The notes below the pieces were generated by a model. It saw only the letters and a list, made by a program, of their open reading frames with translations. It was not told the origin of the DNA and ran no database searches. A DNA stretch of 64,000 nt, taken from contig NC_134028.1 in assembly GCF_964204645.1 (NCBI RefSeq), positions 11,269,263 through 11,333,262 on the forward strand. The letters are read 5' to 3'. The translations under genes and the position numbers were made by a program. This DNA comes from Tubulanus polymorphus (Eukaryota; Animalia; Nemertea). The stretch's first letter is position 1, and each line of letters opens with the position of its first letter. Positions 12,348 to 64,000 of the stretch are shown piece after piece.

Positions 12348-12696
12348 TCAAGTCTAGTCTGAATACCAGTCGTTGTTACCGGTTCCCTACAACGTCTGAC
12401 GCTAAAGTATCATATAGAGGTCAACTCCTGTTAATTGCAATGCGTCAACTAATTTTAGTGTCAAATCAAACCTGTGTACTAAAATGAATAAATTAGTTAC
12501 CTTAACTTTGAAAACGTGTTTTATAATAACATTTTTGATGATCTAAATCGCGAATCGGAAATTTATTGATTTGATTTGAATTGATTGCCATAATCGGGAT
12601 TTCCAATACGGACTAGATTAATAAAATGTGAAAAGTCAATATGTCTCTATAAAATTACTCTAAATGTCATTTTTTGTCGATAAAACCACAGGCACT

Positions 12697-13291
12697 TGAA
12701 TATGGGCTTTGAAAATGGATAAATATTTGATAATTTACCGGCGATACGTTGATCCTACTTTAATAGATCCGCCATGTTTTATAATAAATTTACCCATGAT
12801 GCAACACGCGCCGGTCGTTTAGCTATACTATACAGAAAGGCTGGAAACGATCCTATCTCCGTAATGCTTAAATCTACCCGCAGTTATCGGGACAGATGAC
12901 GTCACAGCAATTCCGAAGAGGCATCGCGAATTTTCAAAAATCAATTTTGTTGCCATTAAAAATCTTTAATGGAGCTAAAACAGTGTCAATGTTTCCAAAA
13001 AAATCATCTACAATTGAAATTATGGGCGCTCCTATATTTCAGGATTAAAATTGACACCAAGGACGTACTTCGACAATCATCGGCAGTGTTCGGCTGTCCC
13101 GATAACTTCGGGTACATTTAAGCATTACGGAGATAGGATCGTTTCCAGCCTTTCTGTATAGTATAGCTAAACGACCGGCGCGCATTGCATCATGGGTAAA
13201 TTCATTATAAAACATGGCGGATCTATTAAAGTAGGATTAACATATCGCAAGTAAATTATCAAATATTTATCCATTATCAAAGCCCATTTCA
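12697..13291. repeat. Foldback element with ~200-bp arms
   Basis: 12697-12895 is the near-perfect reverse complement of 13094-13291; the right arm stops where the LINE 5' region begins. Confidence 0.8.
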
Positions 13292-13541
13292 CCTCGACCC
13301 GCACTTTCACCTCCGCTCGGAACGTCGGGCGCTGTAGTAGGACATGGCCGCGAAATTTGTCGCTCTATAAATCTTGTGCAAAACTAACCGATTACTACCG
13401 TCAAGTAACTGAAATTAACCCTTAGAGGTTAAATTAAATACTCCGATGTTACACAGATGCAAGTATAGAAACGCCAGAGCTTATTAAGTCGTGAGTAGAC
13501 TCGAAATAGTGACGAAACTACACCGATCGTCGGAATTCAAA

Positions 13542-15509
13542 ATGGCGCCGTCCATACAAAGACCCGGAAATGAGGTGAAAGTAAGCATGAACACTTTGCA
13601 ATTCGTTAAACTGCCTACACTGGACGAGCTCCGCGTTAAGTACCTCTCCCTGGCACGAGAAACTCACCCGGATCGCAGCGTTATTCCAAATGCTACTGCA
13701 CAATTTCAAAAACTTAACAGCGCTTACGTGCATCTCAGAGAACACTTAAGCCATACCACAACCTCGGATAGACGGCGAAAATCATCAACAGAAAATGAAC
13801 TGGGTCTTTTAAACCAACAGATTAATATCTCAGAAAAGACTCAGTCAGTGGTTATTGACCTGTCAAGCAAAGACCCAAGTAGCAGTGTCAAATCATTCCT
13901 ATCCGAACTAAGGAACGATTATGGCAACCCTATAGACCGTGGTGACCACGGCCTCCATTTCAGTGGGACATATGTCGACTCTAATGACAACGCCCTCGGC
14001 ACAATCCACATAACCCTTTACAAGGGATCGGCTAAGAAATCTGCAAAATTACGTGTGCATGGCTCATCGTACCTCCTTTGACTTAGTGAAGATCTGCCTA
14101 AGATGTTAGAAAAGCTACTTAAGAAGAAGCCGGGGCCACCCCTACCGTTGCATGGACCCGCGAAGTCTCCCAAGTCAAGCTGCTTATCGTGCCCCGACCC
14201 GGACTCCAAGTCAATGATCCAATCCTCTCTATGCGAGGGGTGGACTCACAACAAATGCTCCAGGCTATCAGAGGACGACCTCTCTAAAGCTACGTCAAAT
14301 ATGGATGAAATTTACATCTGCCCCCCATGCAGTAATGCTGGGGAGCCAAACCAACCACTGATAAGTTGCGCTCCAGTTACCGCCCTCAATGGAAACACCA
14401 CCGCAGGGTGTCAAGTAGACATCGCAGAGTCCAATCGTGTCTCCATCGGGTGCCAAACCAGCCAGCCAGTGTTGGACAGTTCGGATATTCTTGACCTATT
14501 TAGATCGATTGAATCACAGCTGGTTAACGTCTCGCAACAAGCTGGCCAGTGTGCCAAATTGTCACACATGAAATCAATGCATGACCGTCTAGATGACCTA
14601 GTTAAGCGTGTAGATCATGTCTCGGATTTATCTACCGCTGTACCGATCATGCAGAAATCGTCCGAACAACTAAAGAAATTAGTAGACAGAAATGATAATC
14701 GCGTCAAAGATATCCTGGAGAAAACGTGCAATACGAACGCTCAAGTCATGTCAGCCCTAGAGCTGCTCAATGATTTGAAATCTACGGCTGCGAACAATTC
14801 ACCGGTAGCAAGGGAGGAGTCTTTACACGAAAATAGTCTCCTCGCTTCTAGTGATACTGATGGCCACAGGAATCTGATTGTCGACTCTGATAATGACACA
14901 ATCAGCAACGACCGACATATCAACACCTGCAGCCCGACACCTCGTGAGGCCTCACTAAGTCAAAGTCGGAATTATCGGAGCGTTTACATTATCGGCGATT
15001 CGAATACCAGATATATAGATCCGAAACGTTTCGTCAAAGATGCTTGCAAAGTATTCTCTAAGCGCGCTTTCACCATCAGGCAAGCATCGGATGTCGTAGA
15101 CAAAATCCAGCATGAGCGTCTGTCCTGCATCATACTGCATGTTGGCACCAACGATATAAGAAACCTCAATAGCGGTAGTGCTTGTGTAGACAAATACATC
15201 AACCTAGTTAATAAAATCAAGGACTACTTCCCAGGTGTGAAACTCGTTGTCTCATTAATTCCGCCGAGATTCGATACGCGAACCTTCGACATCCAGTCGA
15301 GATCATTTAACTCTTATATCGTATCATTAGCCGCGCACGACAGAAACACCACCGTAGTGAACAATGACAACCTTGATGATCAACAACGTTTCTACAAGGA
15401 CTCGATCCATCTCAACAAGAGAGACGGAATCAGGAGATTCACCAACAACTTAGCGACTGGTGTCCGCAGAGCTTTACAACTGTTCACCAGGCACTCCAGA
15501 TATCACTAG
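13542..15509 (+). pseudogene. LINE ORF1: J-domain + PHD-like finger + coiled coil + SGNH esterase
   Basis: ORFs 13491-14081 and 14103-15509 share a frame, separated by one TGA. Motifs: HPD with J-domain helices; CLSC..CEGWTHNKC..YICPPC; IIGDSN, LHVGTND, DSIHLN. Confidence 0.85.
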
Positions 15510-15625
15510 ATACTCTTATCTATATATATAAATTCTATTGTTACAGGTATTATCCTGTCACTTGCTTGTATTAAACAACTGCTGTGTATTTGTCTTAAAA
15601 TACTATAACTGTCACTACCCGTATC

Positions 15626-18600
15626 ATGCTCAATATATGTCATTGGAATATCCAGGGTGTGAAAAATGGATTTATATGTAAGACTGAGGACGAGTACTTT
15701 AAGAAACTTACCAACTGTTATGATGTTATATGCCTAACAGAGACATTTACTTGCCAAAACGATGAAATCTCAAACGAAATTTCTGGGTTCAAGAAGCTGC
15801 AATCGTGTAGAGCTAATCTGCCAAATGCCCGTAGAAATTATGGGGGCATTATAATATATGTTAAAGACTATCTAAGAAACTTTGTCAAAGTGGTTGAAAA
15901 CAATTCATCGGAAATAGTTTGGCTCAAAATAACTCCAAATTCCGGCACCAGAAATTCTAGTTCATTATATCTGGCCATTGCCTATATTAGCCCCTTAAAT
16001 TCCACTTACGGAGCAAAACACTCCGATGAAACTTTTCAACTCCTAGAGAGCAGCTGCTCTAAATACCGTAAACGCGGTGATGTAATGATTATAGGTGACC
16101 TTAATGCCCGGACCCCAGCAGCTAATGTTATACATAAAACAGATGAGGATGACTTCGCTTTTCTACCAAATATCCAGGAGCTTGTCTCCAAAAACGGTTA
16201 TATGCCCAACAGGAGAAGCAAGGATAAAACCATTAACAAAATGGGGAGAAATATGCTTGAAATGTGTGATACTGCCAATTTATGTATTTTAAACGGCAGA
16301 AGCCCCGGTGACTTTTTGGGCAAGTACACTTGTCATCAGTATAATGGTAGTAGCACTCCCGACCTTTGTATAGTAAACCAAGACCTGTTTCATAATGTCA
16401 GATATTTCCATGTCCATGACCTAAGTGAGCTGTCTGATCATTGTCCAATTGCTGTAGGCTTAAACTTTGAAAACCAGGAACCAACTAAAAATCATTCTAG
16501 CTTTAAAAAGAAATGTCTTGAAAACAAGCATTTCAAAAATTACAAGTCACCGTCCGATATTCAAAACCTGCTGTCAAACCCAGAAACTATACAAAAATTG
16601 CAGGATCTTAACAACAGTAACAGATGGACATCAGACAGCCCAACTCAAGAGTCAGTTGACCGGATAGTAGAGGATTTTGTTAATATTTCGAAGAATGATT
16701 GCCGAAAGCCAAGGGTAACCAAAGCACGCAAATCCTATAAGAAATGGTTTGATGATCAATGCCACCAAAAAAGCACCGAATCCGTAAATTAGGCAGACTT
16801 ATTAGTGAATTCCCATCAGATGATACCAGAGCTGAATACTTTAAAGCCAAAAAGGCTTACAAAAAGCTTATCAAATCAAAAAAACTAAAATTCAAACAGG
16901 CTCAACTTGATAAACTTAACCAGCCAAATCTACCACCCAGGACATTCTGGAACGCGGTCACTAATCTTGCACCTGGTGGTGATAAGAATAAAACTTATGA
17001 AGGCCCAAATGCGGAAGATCTACTACAGCATTTTATTAATATCAGTAAAGGGGAAAATCATACTGAAAATCAAATAGATACCAATACAGGCAATAACCCA
17101 ATCAACCCTAATACTCAAATATTCCATGAACTTGATTACAGAATAACTGAACGCGAAATACTTGAAGCAATCAATAAGCTTAAGAACAACAAATCCCCGG
17201 GGTTAGATAGCGTCACCAACGAATTACTAAAATTCGGACAAGAGGCAATCTCAAAAAGCTTACTACAAATCTTTAACCACGTCTACAGTAATGGTATCTT
17301 CCCGAGTTCTTGGGCCCAAGGAATAATAACACCCATCCATAAAGGTGGCGCGCCCAATAACCCGGATAACTATAGAGGTATAACGCTGAACAGTTGTCTA
17401 GGAAAGCTATTCTCCTCCATAATCAATAACAGACTTATTAAATATCTATGTTATAATAAAATTATCAATAAAAACCAGATAGGATTCATGCCAAAAGGCA
17501 ACACCTCTGATCATATATTTACGCTAAAGACCATCATTGACAAAAAATTGCTGAAATCACAAAAGCTATACACATGTTTTATTGATTTAAAACGAGCATT
17601 TGATTCCGTCTGGCACAAGGGACTTATGCATAAGCTAAACGATCTTAATCTTGGGCAACACTTTCAAAACATAATATCTAGCATGTACTCAAAAACAACC
17701 TGGTGCCTGAAAATCGGTACCAATATAACGTCTGAAATGTATCCCTCAAACGTGGGAGTAAAGCAAGGTGACATACTTAGCCCTATCCTGTTTAATATTT
17801 TCATAAATGATGTGATCGATATATTTGATGAATTGTGTGATCCTGTTCAATTACATAACTATCTCATAAATTGCTTATTATACGCTGACGATATCGTTTT
17901 GATATCAGAGTCCCAAAGAGGGCTCCAACGTTGTCTGGATAAGTTATATACCTATTTTCAGAGGTGGAAACTTGAAGTTATTATTAAAAAAAGTAAGGTC
18001 ATAGTATTTAGTCGTAAGGGTAACATTCCAGTGTCCCTAGACTTTAAGTACGGCAATCTAGCATTAGACATAGTGAAAGAATACAAGTACCTCGGTATAA
18101 TTTTTTCATCAGACGGTGTTTTTAACAACGCAAAGGTCCACCTGGTAAATAATGCTAGAAGAGCCATGTTCTCAATCCAAAAACTTATTGGTGCGGGTAA
18201 CTGCACCCCAGAAGTATGTATAAAACTTTTCGATAATTTGGTGGCACCAATTTTATTGTACAGCTGTGAAATTTGGGTCCCCTCAAAACAACTCCTAAGG
18301 AAAATCTCAAAAACTGATGTCTTTAACATTGAATTAGCATTTGAAAAAGATGACCACCTACAGAAACTGTTTATCTCGTTTTGTAAATATATACTTAATG
18401 TAACACGTCGAGCAACAAACATGGCTGTAATTGGTGAACTCGGTAAATACCCACTCTATATAGCTGCTTGTATGAGACTCCTGAAATTCTGGCATGCTGT
18501 GCACCAGAATCAGGACAGATTGGTGTACCACGCCATGCAAGAGTCAATCTTGTTGAACTCGACTTGGTATAACTTCCTCGCAAAACTTGCTGGCATCCTT

Positions 18601-19120
18601 AACCATTCAGAACTGATAGAGAATCCATCTAATTCTAAATCTTTTACCCGAGCTAAACATACACTACAAGAGAGATATAAAATTTTTTGGCACAAATGGA
18701 TATCAAATTCCCCAAAACTAGACTGCTACAAAAATCTAAATCCTGAATTTACCATGACGCCATTCTTAATGGATCCTATACTACCAAAACTGTTTAGAAC
18801 CAACATTTGTAAATTTAGGATAAGTAATCATCGTCTTCTGATAGAGCGAGGAAGATATACCAATTTACCAAGAGAGAATAGACTGTGCCAACACTGTAAT
18901 GCCATTGAAGATGAGTTTCATTTTATAGCCTAATAGAATGCTCTCGACTAAATGAAATAAGATATAACCTAAACAGAGCAGTGAGCTGTATATACCCAGA
19001 TGCCCCAAATTGGGAGGACCAGACCAAATTCAAAAAACTTCTCACAGATAAGAAACTACATGGTCCTATTGGGGAATACATCTCTAAAGGCTTTGAAATC
19101 CTAGACTCTGATAATAATTA
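15626..19120 (+). pseudogene. LINE ORF2: apurinic endonuclease + reverse transcriptase
   Basis: WNIQG, LTETF, GDLNA, SDH (APE); KSPGLD, NYRGITL, FIDLKRAFDSV, QGDILSP, YADD, YKYLG (RT). Frameshifts near 16770 and 18930. Confidence 0.95.
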
Positions 19121-19228
19121 ACACGAAACTGCTTTTATTCTTGTTATATTAATGTAAAATGTTTTTTTGTAAATACTATTTGTAAATATCACTCTGTGCA
19201 TCTCGACCCGAAAGGGTGTAAGCAGTAC

Positions 19229-20190
19229 CACAGGGACTTGTCATGACTGATAATGGATGAGACCAATGATGGGGGTACCAGTATCCCTGCAACTGCGCGG
19301 TCATACCTGTACGCTTATCTCATTTATTTGTATAATCCACGCGATGGGTGAGCTCACAAGCTCAAAATCGAAAATGAGGATGAACACGGCGTTCAACTTG
19401 TCATCAACTGGGCGGCCATTAATCACGTGATATCGTAGTAACGGGCTAAATATTTCACGCGCATTGATTGGCTTAGAGATTTCGAAAAACATTACAAAAT
19501 TTATTAAAAGTTCTGTTAATTAATAAAATATCCGTATTATGAAAATATAGTGCAACATTCGTCTGAGGGGTGGTATTATTAGCAAATATTTCCTTTTTTC
19601 AAGTCTACAGACGTAGACTTGTCGCGGTTCTATTAACATAGCCCGAACCTGCACGTCACGTGATTAATGGCCGCCAGCGCGATAGCGCGAGGTGACTTTT
19701 TCATATATTTGTTCGATTTTGAGCTTGCGAGCTCACCCATCGCGTGGATTATACAAATAAATGAGATAAGCGTACAGGTATGACCGCGTAGTTTTAAAAA
19801 ATGTATGGTTTGTTGGGGTTATCTCTAAGATTTCACATAGAAATCATCGTTTGAATTGAAAAAAACGACCATTTTGCTGTCCACCATAGAATCGGTACAC
19901 CTCCATTTTGAGCTATCTCTCGTCAAAAAAAGGTGATTTCGTTGTGAGATAATTGTCGGAGAGTGGTGGTTGTAGGCTCGTTCGAAGCAGAAAGTCTTCT
20001 AGGTTGTATTAAAGCTTATTTCATGTGAATCGGTTGAGAATTTTTGGAATTACAGTCGATTGAAGTGGAGAAGTCATTGTCAGATTGAAAATTTGTTGCC
20101 ACCCTTGTTTTTTATATTATACAGGGATAGTGGACCTGGTCATTGATATTGGTTTTATTCATTCACTATCAATTGTGACAAGTCCCTGTG
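19229..20190. mobile_element. Non-autonomous DNA transposon (8-bp TSD; P- or hAT-like) in the LINE 3' UTR
   Basis: TIR CACAGGGACTTGTCA / TGACAAGTCCCTGTG; TSD AGCAGTAC at 19221-19228 and 20191-20198; internal foldback 19291-19380 / 19712-19794. Confidence 0.85.
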
Positions 20191-20535
20191 AGCAGTACAA
20201 TAAAGAGTTTATTGAATTGAATTATATGGAAAATGACACTTACTCCGCAATAAGCTGGGCCAATTCAGGGTGGGAATTGCCTGCTAGGAGTTGCATTCCG
20301 CGTCTTTCCATACCAAACAGAGATGATTTTGATGCCATAGCTATATTTAGTGAAGTTTTTGCCGAGGGTGAATCACCGAACGATATTGCGTGCACACGAT
20401 TTAACAAATTATAGTAAAATGATTAATGTGTTGGATAGTCGAGATAATATTTTATTGGTTATGCCTAATCATCGGTCACAGAATCGGACTTATGTTCAAT
20501 AGACTGGTTACCGGTCTCAATCTTCAATTAGAGAT

Positions 20536-20856: not shown

Positions 20857-21328
20857 ATTAGAGACCGGTTGTGCCCATCCTCCATTTTACATTTTCAATG
20901 CATGTCAAATAAGGTCAAACATGTAAAGTAGCAAGTTACTTCATTCAGTCACTTCCTGGTTAAGATGGCGTCTCTTCGAATCTGCTTAGCTTCGAGAGCG
21001 ATATCAAAATTGTCCTTTACAATGGACGGAAAGACATTAATTGCTGTGTATCAGATATATCCGCTGATAATTTACCTGGTACTCGGAATACAAACTAACA
21101 AGGATCGAAATCTATTGCGAGGCGAGCTCTGCCGCGACCGTCACTGAATACAGAACATTCTGAAGGAACAGGGGACATCCTTTCTATACCGTTCGTGAGA
21201 TGTATTTAGTGAATTGATGTTTTAATACAGTGTTGTAAAATGACTATATTAAGTATCTGAATGAAGTTTACAATCGTTGAACTCCTAAGTGCTTTGTGAG
21301 ATCAGATATTAGGATCCACCTCAGCCTA
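20857..21328 (+). repeat. Unclassified repeat; inverted partner at 24616-25075
   Basis: Reverse-complement match to 24616-25075 (e.g. AAGATGGCGTCTCTTCGAATCTGCTTAGC, GGATCCACCTCAGCCTA). Confidence 0.8.
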
Positions 21329-31121: not shown

Positions 31122-32528
31122 ATGATGGCGACGGCGGGTGACAGTTTAACGCTGGCTTTGCCACTCTGATCAGAGTTATTTGATAACGACGATCTAGAGT
31201 CCTATCACTATCACAACGTCGAAGAAGAGAAACTTAAATATCAAGTTGTACTATGCTCGACTCAGTAAGTATCTTAAACACGCACAAGCCATGAGGTTTA
31301 CTTTCTTTTCAATTCAATTAATATGATTTTATTTCGTTTGTCTTAGACTTAATTTTGTTAATAATTAAGTTGCATATGACCTGCATGATAGGAGCTAGGG
31401 GGCATAAATATGTTAAAAGCCACTAAAAGTTAATGTCAGTCTTGTCTGGTGTTCAACATCTACAACTTCCGTGAAAAGTTCTATCATTTTTTATTTTTCA
31501 GGCTGCGGTCAGACAGGATAAAAATAAACATGTACACAGAAAATATAGCAAGTGAATACTTGGACGAAGATTTCAAACGTTTATTCAGATTATCTCGAGG
31601 CACATATGCAACTCTGAGTAATCTACTCGAACCATTACCAGAGATGCAAACTGCAGTAATAAACAGAGGTCGACAGGCAGTTAACGCAGAAAAAAAGATC
31701 CTTGCCACTTTGTGGTATCTAGGTACATTGGACACAATTAGACAAATCTCAGACAGGTTCGATGTTTCTGAATCGTGTGTTCTAAAGTGTATTACAACGG
31801 TATTATCTGCTATAACTAATGGACTTACAAAAAAGATAATTAAATGGCCATCAGTTGAAGAGCAGGAAGAGATTTCTGATGGATTTTACCAACGTAATGG
31901 TTTTCCTGGAATTATTGGGGCAATTGATTGCACACACGTTGAAATTAAAGCTCCTCGCAGGCCAGATAAACAAGTGTTTGTGAACCGGAAATCATATCAT
32001 TCCATGAATGTTCAGGCAGTGTGTAAAGACGACATGCGCTTCACCCATATTTATGTCGGCTGGCCGGGAAGCGTGAATGATTCGAGAATATTAAAAAACA
32101 GTGACTTGTAGAATAATTTCGGTTTATTTGGTGACAAACATATTCTGGGCGATGGAGGTTATCCCTGTCGCAGATGGTTAGTGAGGCCATATCGTAACGA
32201 TGGCAATATGACTCGAGCTCGTAGACGATTTAATTACTTGTTGTCCAGTAATAGAGCAGTCATAGAAAGAGCGTTTGGTAGAGTTAAAGGTCGATTTAGG
32301 CGTCTCCATTATGTCAATGTCCATTCCATTAAAAAAATTATTATTATCATCACCTCTGCATTTGTCTTGCATAATATCTGTTCAATGTCAGATGAAGATG
32401 ATCTTGAAGATTTACATGACGTTGTTGACGATGGCCTGGAGGCAAATAATGGTGCCGAGATCATAGGTGCTGATCATGAAGGAGAACAGTATAGAAACGA
32501 TTTAAGATTGCAATTGGTTGGAGAGTAG
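31122..32528 (+). pseudogene. Harbinger (HARBI1-like) DDE transposase
   Basis: FRLSR, GAIDCTH, NRKSYHS, GWPGSVNDSRI, GDGGY, IERAFG; in-frame TAG at 32109; inferred intron 31265 (GTAAGT) to 31501 (TTTCAG). Confidence 0.9.
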
Positions 32529-33617
32529 TATATCTTCTACCTTGCATACAAAGTTTTAATGCATTTGTAACACTTAAGTCATTAAATTAGTATTCAAGTC
32601 ATTTCTTTTTGTCCAATTCAATTATTTGCACACAGGTGACACAGAAGTTTGGTTTAGAGACTGAGGATGTTTGATGTATCAACTTTTATCAAAATGCGGC
32701 CTCGACTCCCTGCCCCATTAGAATTTCACCAATTTTAGACTGCCTTAATAGCCACAATAACAACAATTGTTTTCATTATAATATACGAGGAGTTTAAAGC
32801 AATCAATTTCGAATTTATCATAACAGTGCATGCCTGGCTTCATGTGCAAAGTATACTATGCGTTGGATTTTTGTGGCTATTAAAATTTCTGCCAAAAGTT
32901 TATCATTCAAACTTCTCGGTTAACCCCCTTACACTGGATGCTGACCAGGGCCCCTAACTCCTTCCAAACCAAAAATGTTTTTCAAGGTCCTTGGATTTTG
33001 AAAATTTTAAGGTTTAAGGCCTAGTTGTTATACACACAGATTCTACTGAATTAAATGGTTTACCTGGATAAACAGTACTGATTTAGGAGTCTTAAATTGT
33101 GATATGAAAGTGATGTATACACTCCTCGAAAAGTCCTTGAATTCTGGAATGACTGATCCGTAGGAACCCTGCTGATTGGAAACTGTTTCTCTGTTCCATA
33201 CCGCCCACAATTTTACTAAAGAGAATGCCATGAAAGGTATTACAGCAAAGGAACAAAATGTTATTATAAACGTAAAATAAAATTTTTATTATGGAAATCC
33301 TCCATCATAAAATTATAAAAATATAAATGATAATATAATTTCCCCATTTTATCACGTAACCAAAATTTCCCTCATTTTTAGAACCGCTCCCCTTACCGCA
33401 AATTCAAACAGTATGTAATAGGATTGTGAAATGATATAGTACGAGATATACCGTAGCATAAGTCATTTACAAATATTTTCAATCAAATTAGTGAAAACTG
33501 TAATGTACAACTGAAAAAAAACTTGAGGTAGTCAGACTTATGCGTACCTTTTATCATAAAACAGCATTTAAAATACTGTATTGAACAAGCTGGATCTTTA
33601 CTTTTTTGAAATAGCAC

Positions 33618-34292
33618 TTACAAAATCTTTGAACAAAGACATTTTTCATTATGCATTTGCATGGCCATGTCCTTGTCTATTTTACGTCGTTCCTCAGCTC
33701 TTTCTTCCATGGCCCCCAAATATTCAATTACTGTTGAAGCTGCTGATTTTTTTGTTCTACATTTATCCGATGGAGAGATTTCATCAAGCTTTCGTTTTTT
33801 AACAATAGGTGATAATTCACTATCATCATCAGTAGATGAATCATGAAGAGGATTACTATCTCTACTACTGAAAGTAACTGGTTTTATATTTGCCGATTTT
33901 ACACCAAGAGCGTCATCCAGCTCATTTTCATACACATAATCTTTGACATAGCCTGAACCCGATTTATTTTTTGCATCTTTTACATTTTTAAACCCTGTAT
34001 TTATAGTTCTCCATCTACCCCTTATTTGCTCAGCACTAAAATCAAAATCATCATTCTGCATTTCTTTTGCGATCTTCATCCACAACATGGACTTACGCAT
34101 CTTCCCTTCATTTACTTTATCAATATTTTTGCGATACAAATCGATCAACTTGAGGGTTGACTGTTTGGTCCATTTTCCACTTGCAGTACCAGCCTCGTCC
34201 ACTATTACACTCCGAGTTTCGGAAACAGTTAGATTTTCAATTGACCCTGAAAAAAAACCTAGTCTAATAACTTTGGAAGAATAAACCATCAC
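33618..34292 (-). CDS. Harbinger Myb/SANT-like DNA-binding protein (last exon)
   Basis: WTKQSTLKLIDLY..LWMKIAKEM..QIRGRWRTI trihelix tryptophans; upstream exons not resolved. Confidence 0.85.
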   Translation of the reverse strand: MMVYSSKVIRLGFFSGSIENLTVSETRSVIVDEAGTASGKWTKQSTLKLIDLYRKNIDKVNEGKMRKSMLWMKIAKEMQNDDFDFSAEQIRGRWRTINTGFKNVKDAKNKSGSGYVKDYVYENELDDALGVKSANIKPVTFSSRDSNPLHDSSTDDDSELSPIVKKRKLDEISPSDKCRTKKSAASTVIEYLGAMEERAEERRKIDKDMAMQMHNEKCLCSKIL

Positions 34293-35295
34293 ATGTTTTT
34301 AAATAATTTGCAACCAAATCCTTTCCAAATTTTAAAAAAATAATGTTTTGTTGATTTTCTGCAGTATTGCAATGTCAATGCTTCTTGACTTCCTTATTGC
34401 CAACTGCCAAATGAATCTACTAAAATATTAAATTTGGCCACGATGCCCCTGAAATATATGTTTAATATGCAGTTAGATAGAAAACATTCGAATATGATGC
34501 ATATGTACATACCTGAAGTTGATGCTTCTTTATATTCAATATGAAATGCTACACCGGCATCTTGCGTTTCTCCTATAATTTAATCAAGGCGACAAATTTA
34601 AAACTGGAATTTTGACACGTACAACTTACAAAACCGTTCAAAAAGTGAAAACGGGCCTATAGCCAATGTAGAGTGATTCTTTAAAAATATGCATACCGGT
34701 GCCACCCTGTGCACGTGCGCACAAAACGTATCATAATTTCGTAGCAGAGTTTTCAGAATACATGTATCTAAAAATATTACATAAACAAGAAATCAACATG
34801 TACTGAGTGGAAGTATTACGAGATAATGAAGATTAGAGTTAACTACAAAACTCCATGAATTAAAAGTCATCTAAATATTTAAATCATTAGTTGAAAAAGG
34901 CAAGTCATGAATTAACATAAATTACCATATTCATTGTGGCACAGTCGACTAATTATGAAAAGTTACACTAAACACAAGTAACACTACGACACTGAATTGA
35001 TTCTGCATTCATTCTAATGAGGTTCAGTATGCCGCCACAGCTTATGCCTTACCTCTTTGATGAATTATTCTATTATAGATATCATTTTCGACGACAAGTG
35101 TTATCGTCTGGCCATTCCTCTCAATCGTTAAGGCTTTTGTTGAACCAAGGTTGTCCTGGCCAGAAGGTGCTCTGTAAATATAAATTAATCCTACAAAATT
35201 AATTTAATTTTTTAAGCTACTCTAAAAAAAATTAAACCTTCGGCCTATAGATACATAACCCTATTTTTTCCAATTGCCATGTTATAAAGAAGCAA

Positions 35296-48012: not shown

Positions 48013-49447
48013 ATGGCGGACCAGGAAGTAAACGTGCGGCGTGAAATCGCACGTAACAATTTATGTACTTTTATGATAGATGAATGTTTCAGTGTACCGG
48101 ATACGCGCTCTTGCGTAGGCCTATACCATTGTCGAAAAAGAAAATTATTCGAGGACGACGTAATTGACGAATTTAAGGTTACTGAAGAACTCAAATATCT
48201 AAAAGAAAAAAAAATACCTCGAATTTAAAACTTTCTGTCTGCAATTATCAGTAGATATACACCGGACGATTTCAAGGCTCGATTTAGAATTAGCAGAACG
48301 ACCCTTGATGTCCTGAAAGACCATGTCATCCCTATACTCGCTGCTGACAGGGAAAGAAACTCTTGTATATCGTACGAAAAACAAATGTTGATTTATGTTT
48401 ATTATTGTGCTACTCAAGACCCGTTGATAAGAGTGGCTGACGTATTTGGAGTTTGTGAAGCTTCAGTCTTTAAGATAATTGGTGAGTTCGTTGTTTGATT
48501 ATTTTTCTGAGAACTGTAGCCGACACCTTAAGAGTTGATATTGATCAAGAGATAAATGCAGAAAAAATTAAAATATGACTTGCTACATATTGTCTATTCT
48601 TCCAGCCACCATCAGCCAAGTCATGAACACCAAGCTGCTGAAGAAATTTATTAAGTGGCCGACTGGTGACAATATTTATCAAGTTTTTCGTGGATTTGAG
48701 CAAATGCGACAATTTCCAAAGTATCGTCTAATACCACTCTGATTTTGTAGAATAATCATAATGACCAATTGTGTTTATAAAACGTTCTCTTCTTAATTTT
48801 AAAAGGTAATTGGTGCTCTGGATGGTACACACATTCCTATTAAGACACCGGTAAAGGACCCAGAGACGTTTCTTAACCGTAAGAAATACCATTCGATAAA
48901 TGTTGCCGCCATATGTGATCATCGGATGATTTTCACGTATGTCTATGTTGGATGGCCAGGTTCGACACATGATTCCCGAGTGTTCAAAAACTCCAAACCT
49001 GGACTTGCTTGTGAAGATCTTGAGAAGCGACGTAAGCTTTTTCCAGAAAATAGCCATTTATTGGCAGACTCGGCCTATGAATTGAGTGATGTCATACTAA
49101 CACCATTCCGAGATACCGGTGGACTAGAAAGATTAGAAAAGAACTACAACTTTCTACACAGTTCTACCCGAATGAGGATCGAAAATGCTTTTGCCTTATT
49201 GAAAGGCCGTTTGCGCCGACTTAAATATATTGATATGCATGACCCAAACAGACTGGTAGATTTTATAATAAGTTCTTTTGTCTTGCACAATATCTGTTTG
49301 TTAAGTAGTGACTCAGTGGAAGATTATTTAAATGAAGGTGATGAAGAACAAATCGATGATGATAATGTTACTCATGGAAATGAACCTCTTCCATCAGCCA
49401 TTGCAAAACGTCGTGCTATTGCAGTAATCCTAGAAGTATTCGAGTAG
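48013..49447 (+). pseudogene. Harbinger transposon 2 DDE transposase (spliced, frameshifted)
   Basis: FKARFRISR; introns ~48482-48604 and ~48721-48806; VIGALDGTH, GWPGSTHDSRV, ADSAY, IENAFALLKGR. Confidence 0.88.
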
Positions 49448-62422: not shown

Positions 62423-63521
62423 CTTCAGGTAAACGCGCCTCCCGCAAAACGGCATCGATCATGATTCAGGCGAACGTTAACTGGCGAACGGGTGGGAACG
62501 TCTTATCTAGCTTAATGGGCACGCCTATCTCGTGACGTCGTAGAAAGTTGTTTAGATCACGCTGGCATTTGAGCTCGCCTTTTGCAATGAACAGAAAATC
62601 GTCAAGAATATGTACAACGAAAGAGCACCCTAACTTATGAACAGCTACCCACTTTAAACAAGACGAGAAACGATCGAAAATAGCGCACGAACTAGAGGGC
62701 CCCATCGGCAAAACAGCATCAACATAAAACTTGCCGTCCAAGGTAAAGCCCAACAAGGGTTGATCAAACTCGCTTATGGGGATAATGCGAAACGCGGATT
62801 CTATATCTGTTCTTGCAAGGTAAACGTCCGGACCCAGAGATTTGATTATATCGATTGCATCTTGAATAGTTGAATATTTAATGGCGGATGCATCCACGGG
62901 GACAAAGTCGTTAACCGAAGAACCCTTTGGGTAGGACAGGTGATGGATAACCCTAAAGCCCCCCGAGCTTTTGGGCACGACGCCGAGGGGCGAAACATGA
63001 ATTGGAGCGCCATCTGGCATAAATGGGTCACTGAAGGGACCCCTAACTCTCCCCAAATCAAGTTCTTTCGTAATCTTTTCCCGAACCACATTGGGATGAT
63101 CCCTAGCTGACTTTAAATTTGTGATACCGCGGCTTGCGATTGGTCCCCCGAAAAAACTGTCGATGCGGAAACCGTGTTGAAAACCGTTGATTAGTAAATC
63201 GCGTTGCTCAGAGTCGTAATCCAAAATGTAGGGTAGAAGTTTAGTTATTCTAACCGGTGTGGGGAGGCTTGGCAGCCTTGGGTCTTTCGGGACGCTGGTT
63301 GCCAGTGCCGGCTGACCGGGCACAATTGACTGCCGAGTGTGAGCCCCTGCAAAATTTACATCTGTGTGCATTAGATGCAGGATTTCCGGGTAAACCCAGA
63401 GAAGCTGTTGTACGCAAAACAGACTTTGGTGAGCGATTGCGAGGAGCTGTTGCGAAAGGACTGGTTGGAGGGGCGTCGAGTTTTGGACTCCATCCAAAGC
63501 TCCCAATCGACGGTGTCCCAA
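62423..63521 (-). pseudogene. Ngaro/DIRS-type reverse transcriptase, 3'-truncated by copy C
   Basis: PTPV, GFRI, NLKSA, SPLGVVPK, FRVIHHLSYP, DIESAFR, LPMG, ILDDF; reads on to REARLPE at the 62423 junction. Confidence 0.88.
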
Positions 63522-64000
63522 CTGCGAGTGGCCCCCTCGGATGAGAAACGTGCTGCCCGGAAATTCATGTCGTAAAATGACCAGTCCCCCCCTTGGGCGG
63601 CCAAATTTTGGACACTGCGGCCATATTTTAGTAAAGGTATGGCGTCAGCCGGACACCTTCGAAGATGCACCGTACAAAATATTTCATACGCACGCACCCA
63701 TTGTTCGATCGACTTCAAGGCGGCCACCTTGGATGGGGCGATGGACAGGGCAGGCGTTTCCTGACCCATGTTGGGCACCACACTGAACGAATATGTGCTG
63801 CTAGGCTTACGCAGGAGCATTGTGAAATCGACAAACTTCCCTGCCCATATGTTTTCCTTTAATTTTTCAGGAACCAGGGCATCCAGCGGGACAGACGAGG
63901 AGTGGAATCTGTCGAAGATGTTAGGCGGTTGCTCTAAAACCTGCACTGCAGTGCCCCCATTACCTTCATCTGATGGAATTGGCGGCTCGACCACGGTAAC
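63371..64000 (-). CDS. Ngaro/DIRS gag-like ORF1 (runs off the window)
   Basis: KENIWAGKFVDFTMLL, WSFYDMNFR, CFAYNS; overlaps the RT ORF. Confidence 0.75.
   Translation of the reverse strand, partial: VTVVEPPIPSDEGNGGTAVQVLEQPPNIFDRFHSSSVPLDALVPEKLKENIWAGKFVDFTMLLRKPSSTYSFSVVPNMGQETPALSIAPSKVAALKSIEQWVRAYEIFCTVHLRRCPADAIPLLKYGRSVQNLAAQGGDWSFYDMNFRAARFSSEGATRSWDTVDWELWMESKTRRPSNQSFRNSSSQSLTKVCFAYNSFSGFTRKSCI

Follow-up and report, generated by a model that had tools for sequence, protein, structure and literature searches.

Class C J-proteins use an HPD motif and a basic helix II to trigger ATP hydrolysis by Hsp70, and a neighbouring domain presents one client. Polyomavirus T antigens likewise use a J-domain to stimulate Hsp70. 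Esterase-type (type IV) ORF1 proteins (ORF1ps) of RTEX, CR1 and L2 LINEs, represented by ZfL2-1 (PDB 4c1b), RTEX-*_BF and RTEX-1_SK, are encoded ahead of an APE-RT gene and carry a coiled coil followed by a catalytic SGNH esterase; in the available excerpts of two reports, their tabulated domains comprise coiled coil, ARM, esterase, PHD, RRM, CCHC and zf/lz (PMC3905857, PMC4120745). According to the excerpts of the former, esterase-type ORF1ps have no recognised RNA-binding domain (PMC3905857).

We analyzed a stretch of 64,000 nucleotides from Tubulanus polymorphus (RefSeq GCF_964204645.1, contig NC_134028.1, positions 11,269,263–11,333,262, forward strand), hereafter the window. It contains a LINE ORF1 that resembles the type IV proteins in gene order, coiled coil and esterase and has a PHD finger as in other ORF1 types. 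Unlike the tabulated type IV proteins, it also carries a J-domain and a predicted TBP/KA1-like domain. Such a J-bearing esterase-type ORF1 is apparently undescribed so far: no description of a J-domain in a LINE ORF1 was found in the literature searched (full text and few subscription papers, with Repbase outside the scope). The literature covered included excerpts of PMC5408684, PMC11203168 and PMC5753468; the available excerpts of PMC7386202 do not mention a J-domain, and in those of PMC9004415, PMC9940879 and PMC5563155 the search term was unrelated to a LINE J-domain. The RTEX-BF entries in Repbase may already note a J-domain, because the lancelet-type proteins described below resemble RTEX-BF ORF1s in layout.

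Layout and decay of the LINE copy

The annotated parts of the LINE copy lie at positions 13542–20224 of the window and comprise an ORF1 with an esterase, a downstream APE-RT ORF2 and a 3′ tail, as in an APE-type LINE with a type IV ORF1. Its features and those adjoining it are:

12687–13302, no strand assigned: palindromic element, high-copy, just 5′ of the LINE; right end inferred from symmetry
13542–15509, + strand: LINE ORF1 of 655 codons with a single premature TGA; encodes a J-domain, a linker, the TBP/KA1-like domain, a PHD, a coiled coil and an SGNH esterase
13569–13763, + strand: J-domain, residues 10–74, based on Pfam, model, fold matches and conservation
13824–14126, + strand: alpha/beta domain, predicted TBP/KA1-like, residues 95–195, without a Pfam family
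14181–14330, + strand: PHD finger, residues 214–263, partly decayed in the window copy; Pfam PHD E 0.0096, below the cut-off
14499–14786, + strand: probable coiled coil, about residues 320–415, by eye from the translation
14973–15479, + strand: SGNH esterase, residues 478–646; active-site Ser, Asn and His present
15626–19121, + strand: ORF2, with APE endonuclease, reverse transcriptase and C-terminal Cys/His motif; frameshifts near 16760–16790 and near 18926
19122–20224, + strand: 3′ UTR, interrupted by an inserted element; AATAAA at 20199–20204, then a short ATTGA-type repeat tail
19229–20190, no strand assigned: TIR element, high-copy, inserted in the LINE 3′ UTR with an 8-bp target duplication

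The ORF1 frame runs from the ATG at 13542 to a TAG ending at 15509 and is interrupted by a single TGA at 14079–14081. Because ORF2 is frameshifted twice, besides the TGA in ORF1, the window copy is dead. The LINE begins at or after about 13303, its exact first base not being fixed; with the 5′ end thus approximate, the longest word common to the flanks tested is at most 7 bases. In the 3′ UTR, the sequencing runs show joints from 19220/19222 to 20193/20194 across the inserted TIR element and a loose end at 19228. A palindromic element is nested inside the TIR element at 19291–19793.

We take the C-terminal Cys/His motif of ORF2 and the short-repeat tail to be RTEX features; both are present here. 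By its layout and these motifs, the window LINE is likely an RTEX element. Its long ORF1, coiled coil and late esterase match the RTEX-type layout in the available part of Table S1 of PMC3905857, where the esterase of RTEX-1_SK spans 481–640 (RTEX-BF families similar), as against 478–646 in the window ORF1.

The earlier note, which was drawn from the sequence alone, had described a PHD finger, a coiled coil and an SGNH esterase in frame with the J-domain. The PHD and esterase are indeed in frame, the coiled coil is assigned by eye, and the TBP/KA1-like domain between J and PHD had been overlooked. The esterase scores 32.7 bits with Pfam Lipase_GDSL_2 (cut-off 32.9), the LINE ORF1 esterase 4c1b is the top PDB match of alignment A1, and the active-site Ser, Asn and His are retained in nearly all aligned esterases of relatives. 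The coiled coil has weak bZIP/coiled-coil Pfam matches in relatives. At PHD residue 228 the window copy has Ser, and 18 of 29 reads encode Cys.

Four sequencing runs were compared over 12600–20300. X5 comprises raw reads that a different study produced; X2, possibly the source sample itself, is not independent. One RNA run yielded no aligned reads. At position 14081, all 29 covering X5 reads have G, giving TGG, as do a contig from X1 and another from X2, and the codon encodes W in 33 of 33 aligned HPD-type relatives. The TGA is thus private to the window copy, and the guess that it stands for TGG was right. X5 depth is 19–22 over the J segment and 25–34 over the remaining ORF1, and contigs of other LINE copies span the J segment, so other copies have the segment too, as the J-domain proposal demanded. 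Depth climbs from about 20 at the LINE 5′ end to 60–77 at 18000–19000, as expected of 5′-truncated LINE copies. An assembly artefact was rejected as an explanation.

ORF1 shows a sign of constraint: among the best-supported 40 of 534 differences between copies, 12 of the 19 in ORF1 are synonymous, where 5.5 would be expected (P 0.0015), a figure that speaks for the whole ORF1 and is not a dN/dS for J, the differences having been chosen by read support and including the window copy's own decay. One of these 40 lies in the J segment and is synonymous. A second dead copy spanning the J segment has lost 4 bases and gained 10 within ORF1, at 13611 and 14224.

Other mobile elements lie elsewhere in the window. 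Several decayed Polinton/Maverick-like segments occupy AT-poor/AT-rich blocks at 21268–61900, with integrase-like, polymerase-like and capsid-like ORFs identified by eye and a weak Pfam match to an A32-type ATPase. Harbinger-like transposase and Myb/SANT-like ORFs at 31434–34298 and 48803–49447, and a DIRS/Ngaro-like reverse transcriptase ORF at 62466–63644 (− strand), were likewise recognized by eye.

The J-domain, its neighbour and their relatives

The J peptide first highlighted lies at 13620–13736, in the frame opened by the ATG at 13542, with the HPD codons at 13665–13673. Pfam DnaJ (PF00226) matched residues 23–66, scoring 32.2 bits in a 73-aa fragment and 29.8 bits in one of 179 aa (cut-off 27.8); on the whole 655-aa read-through the score was 27.5 bits, slightly below the cut-off. 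A 42-residue gapless alignment joins the J segment to a solved DnaJ J-domain, and the best Atlas score, 0.89, was to DnaJ clusters, which we treat as a lead only. The helix II–HPD–helix III pattern, composed after the sequence was seen, has a single occurrence across all six window frames and none in 20,000 ORF1 shuffles. A chance motif was rejected.

Residues 1–200, folded using a 48-row alignment, gave a model with pLDDT 86.4 and pTM 0.69 (single-sequence folding, at pLDDT 38, was set aside). The model has helices at 10–18, 27–41 and 51–74, followed by a loose linker that leads to an alpha/beta domain (95–195); helix I of the J-domain is present and there is no separate helix IV. Its top three fold matches are J or J-like domains: Tim16 (Z 9.1; rmsd 1.8 over 62 residues), Rbj (Z 8.1; rmsd 1.6 over 61 residues) and RabJ (Z 7.8), with rmsd 1.6–2.8. 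The polyomavirus T-antigen J-domain (PDB 1faf) matched at Z 6.8. With Foldseek, the ORF1 N-terminal model had no match reaching E 0.001. Thus the note's J-domain at the start of ORF1, with HPD and the helix II/III pattern intact, withstood both Pfam and structure prediction. Its extent needed correction: 13542–13750 was originally given, and the domain, helix I included, spans about 13569–13763.

A HMMER search with the read-through ORF1 returned 735 matches with E values up to 0.001. Of these 735, the top 150 were examined together with P0001 and P0002, 152 proteins in all. The J profile matched 42 of the 152, a sample that favours HPD-bearing proteins, given an HPD-bearing query and the choice of the best 150, and that includes near-copies (up to 98% in J). 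Pfam DnaJ agreed in 41 of the 42, at up to 84 bits; P0018 fell short of E 0.0002. The suggested survey of other ORF1s thus brought out further J-domains.

These 42 proteins form two groups. In the main group (34 proteins including the query), HPD is kept in 33 (32 of 33 relatives), with H in 34/34, P in 33/34 and D in 34/34, in line with the expectation that the motif would be a family feature. K or R follows HPD in 34/34, F55 is found in 34/34, N59 in 32/34, A61 and Y62 in 33/34 each, and a basic residue occupies position 35 in 28 of 33 proteins. Pairwise identity averages 43% in J and 37% in the following domain, against 10% in the linker. Residues 27–45, which include helix II, carry a net charge of +1 to +5 in the 33 relatives. 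In the window copy the J-domain is worn, with net charge 0 over the same residues, Leu at position 35 and a degenerate helix I.

The second, lancelet-type group (8 proteins, of which the 4 looked up are from Branchiostoma) has HPD in 0/8 and lacks the basic helix II; the J fold is kept according to Pfam. It forms one side of a branch both in the esterase tree (7 rows, support 99/93) and in a second-domain tree (7 rows, support 89). Because this clade lost HPD yet keeps the fold, a J fold is able to persist without its Hsp70 motif. Two lancelet proteins of the family, P0002 and P0003, are labelled 'G-protein coupled receptor' by their source, and the metagenomic member P0068 of the wider set is labelled 'curved DNA-binding protein CbpA'; both labels are likely mis-annotations.

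The relatives share the order of domains from J to esterase, and of 20 clusters of relatives looked up, 5 comprise 3 to 9 members each, located on separate contigs that are mostly megabase-long. From domain order and copy number, we infer that the J-bearing relatives are LINE ORF1s; some invertebrate database proteins named 'DnaJ domain' are then likely retrotransposon products. By sequence and predicted fold, the J-domain is confirmed, and it is a trait shared widely within this family. The esterase tree holds 42 rows: 14 main-group and 7 lancelet-type rows long enough to be included, and 21 esterase ORF1-like proteins without a J-domain. The HPD label needs three changes on this tree; since supported branches force only one, the tree is compatible with a single origin without establishing one.

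Other searches were less productive. In the 9 loci that a metagenome scan returned, the + strand ORFs read showed no J-domain ahead of the esterase. Genome and viral scans yielded only generic prokaryotic or viral J-domains among 80 of 567 and 80 of 511 matches, two further scans returned nothing, and none of these scans placed a relative beside an RT gene. A word-index protein search returned no match with residues 1–215 or alignment A1, and two with the esterase region.

The alpha/beta domain of residues 95–195 is present in all 42 J-bearing proteins among the 152 examined, always after J. Its structural matches include the KA1 domains of METTL16 (Z 7.1, rmsd 4.0, 102 aligned), SAD-B (6.7), Chk1 (6.7) and TUT1 (5.8), as well as Med18/20 and CYTH (Z 7.0) and RNase H3 (Z 6.6, rmsd 2.4, 69 aligned), all tied at Z 7.1 or below, within the range of common folds, some to proteins unconnected with RNA, and obtained from a domain that was not folded alone. 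We take a TBP/KA1-like arrangement as a lead from this model. The KA1 domains of METTL16 and TUT1 have been solved with U6 RNA, and RNA binding by the modelled domain would be a guess. Three extra strong matches of residues 95–195 begin just ahead of the domain and may be cut short, and six weak matches have different N-termini. L009 (434–2962) has a distant TBP/KA1-like form and a PHD without J.

Among J-free esterase ORF1-like proteins, P0039, P0059, P0067, P0078 and P0120 have an RNase H1 N-terminal (Cauli_VI) domain at the N-terminus, and P0065, P0096 and P0118 a whole RNase H domain there. In the 64 esterase ORF1-like proteins scanned, the former occurs in 4 and the latter in 3. The N-terminal slot of these proteins is exchangeable. 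A NADAR domain lies within L009 (434–2962), P0031, P0054 and P0096, and P0031 combines J, PHD and NADAR in one protein; NADAR in a Tx1 ORF1 is already reported in the available excerpt of PMC12477816.

Proposed function and alternatives

Given a predicted J fold, an HPD conserved in the main group and a J segment in other copies, the ORF1 J-domain probably recruits host Hsp70, as the earlier note had supposed; its further step, to RNP assembly or RT activation, stays conjectural. The reading we favour, at a probability of about 0.55, is that ORF1p would be a class C J-protein directing host Hsp70 onto the element's own ribonucleoprotein (RNP). ORF1p would multimerize via its coiled coil, and the TBP/KA1-like domain would grip element RNA, an RNA–DNA hybrid or an acidic membrane. 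The tethered J-domains could then load Hsp70 onto ORF1p or co-assembled ORF2p, and Hsp70 would fold, solubilize or strip the RNP, which would be remodelled for reverse transcription without need of host J-proteins.

The RNP is suggested as the client because the TBP/KA1-like partner is invariant while PHD is often lost, and work on the element's nucleic acid because in sister proteins the same slot is filled by an RNase H1 N-terminal domain or by RNase H. Hepadnaviral RT, which according to the available part of PMC3820986 requires Hsp40/Hsp70/Hsp90 to bind its own RNA, supports the RNP reading as a precedent. Counting against it are the HPD-less clade, the J-free esterase ORF1s, the neutral helix II of the window copy and the dispensability of ZfL2-1 ORF1 in HeLa cells (PMC3905857, available excerpt).

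A wider version of this reading, to which we give slightly less than even odds, is that a widespread LINE lineage encodes a dedicated Hsp70 co-chaperone, made of J and an undescribed TBP/KA1-like RNA-binding domain. This module would be portable between esterase ORF1 lineages, Hsp70 would uncoat or activate the RNP, and the lancelet clade would have an HPD-less J-like form. The modelled TBP/KA1-like domain would then be a candidate for the RNA-binding module missing from esterase-type ORF1ps. The proposal bears on the activation of ORF2p and on the way the ORF1p coat of a LINE RNA is shed or rearranged. With an element-encoded J-domain, chaperone dependence is addressable by one point change, and the HPD-less clade and J-free relatives offer natural controls.

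Alternatively, ORF1p could act on chromatin, its PHD reading histone tails and its J-domain bringing in Hsp70, which would loosen nucleosomes or silencing complexes, either at the target site or at the element's own promoter. J and PHD share one N-terminal module in many members, a targeting role has been proposed for PHD in LINE ORF1 (PMC4120745, excerpt), and a plant complex of methyl-reader, J-protein and Hsp70 controls transposon expression (SILENZIO; PMC8616336, excerpt). We nonetheless consider this unlikely: the 14 members of one subgroup, and others besides, retain HPD with a PHD that is missing or decayed, as against the 42/42 for the TBP/KA1-like domain.

The J-domain might instead be a decoy or inhibitor, occupying host Hsp70 or J-proteins that serve silencing or RNP clearance, with the HPD-less lancelet form as a Tim16-like inhibitor. 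Retention of the fold by an HPD-less clade would fit, as would the best single fold match, J-like Tim16, although its Z of 9.1 is within 1 of the HPD-type J at 8.1; the human L1 ORF1p interactome also includes host chaperones (PMC3753637, excerpt). The near-invariant HPD and basic helix II of the main group suit an activating J-domain, and a decoy, for which our data hold no direct support, seems to us quite improbable.

Retention of the helical hairpin as a structural or oligomerizing module with no Hsp70 role would explain the fold kept without HPD in eight proteins and the worn J surface of the window copy. It is very improbable, because HPD sits in a loop and yet 33 of 34 proteins retain it at the J identity given above. 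Finally, it is barely credible that J is a host fragment captured by the window copy alone (rejected, since reads and contigs of other copies cover the segment at a depth close to that of the rest of ORF1) or that the relatives are domesticated host genes, as the scans that placed none beside an RT gene might suggest, when the relatives share the full J-to-esterase order, several are represented by 3 to 9 variants that lie on separate contigs, and the ORF1 in the window directly precedes APE-RT.

Comparison with known J-domain and chaperone systems

The window ORF1 resembles class C J-proteins and the polyomavirus T antigen in its three-helix J fold and HPD, fused to unrelated domains. Like class C J-proteins, it is without a G/F region or DnaJ client domain, and like the T antigen its J-domain is carried by a genetic parasite. 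It differs from the T antigen in that J is encoded by a retrotransposon, in an RNP protein. Tim16/Pam16 (PDB 2guz_B) has a J fold without HPD, as does the lancelet-type clade, whereas the window protein and the main group have HPD. Hepadnaviral RT belongs to a reverse-transcribing element whose RNP formation depends on Hsp40/Hsp70 (PMC3820986, available part), as that of the window LINE would. Hepadnaviruses borrow the Hsp40 of the host, whereas the window LINE carries its own J-domain, its chaperone dependence being putative. If the wider co-chaperone reading is true, this LINE lineage would be the first retroelement known with its own chaperone trigger, the very component that hepadnaviruses take from their host.
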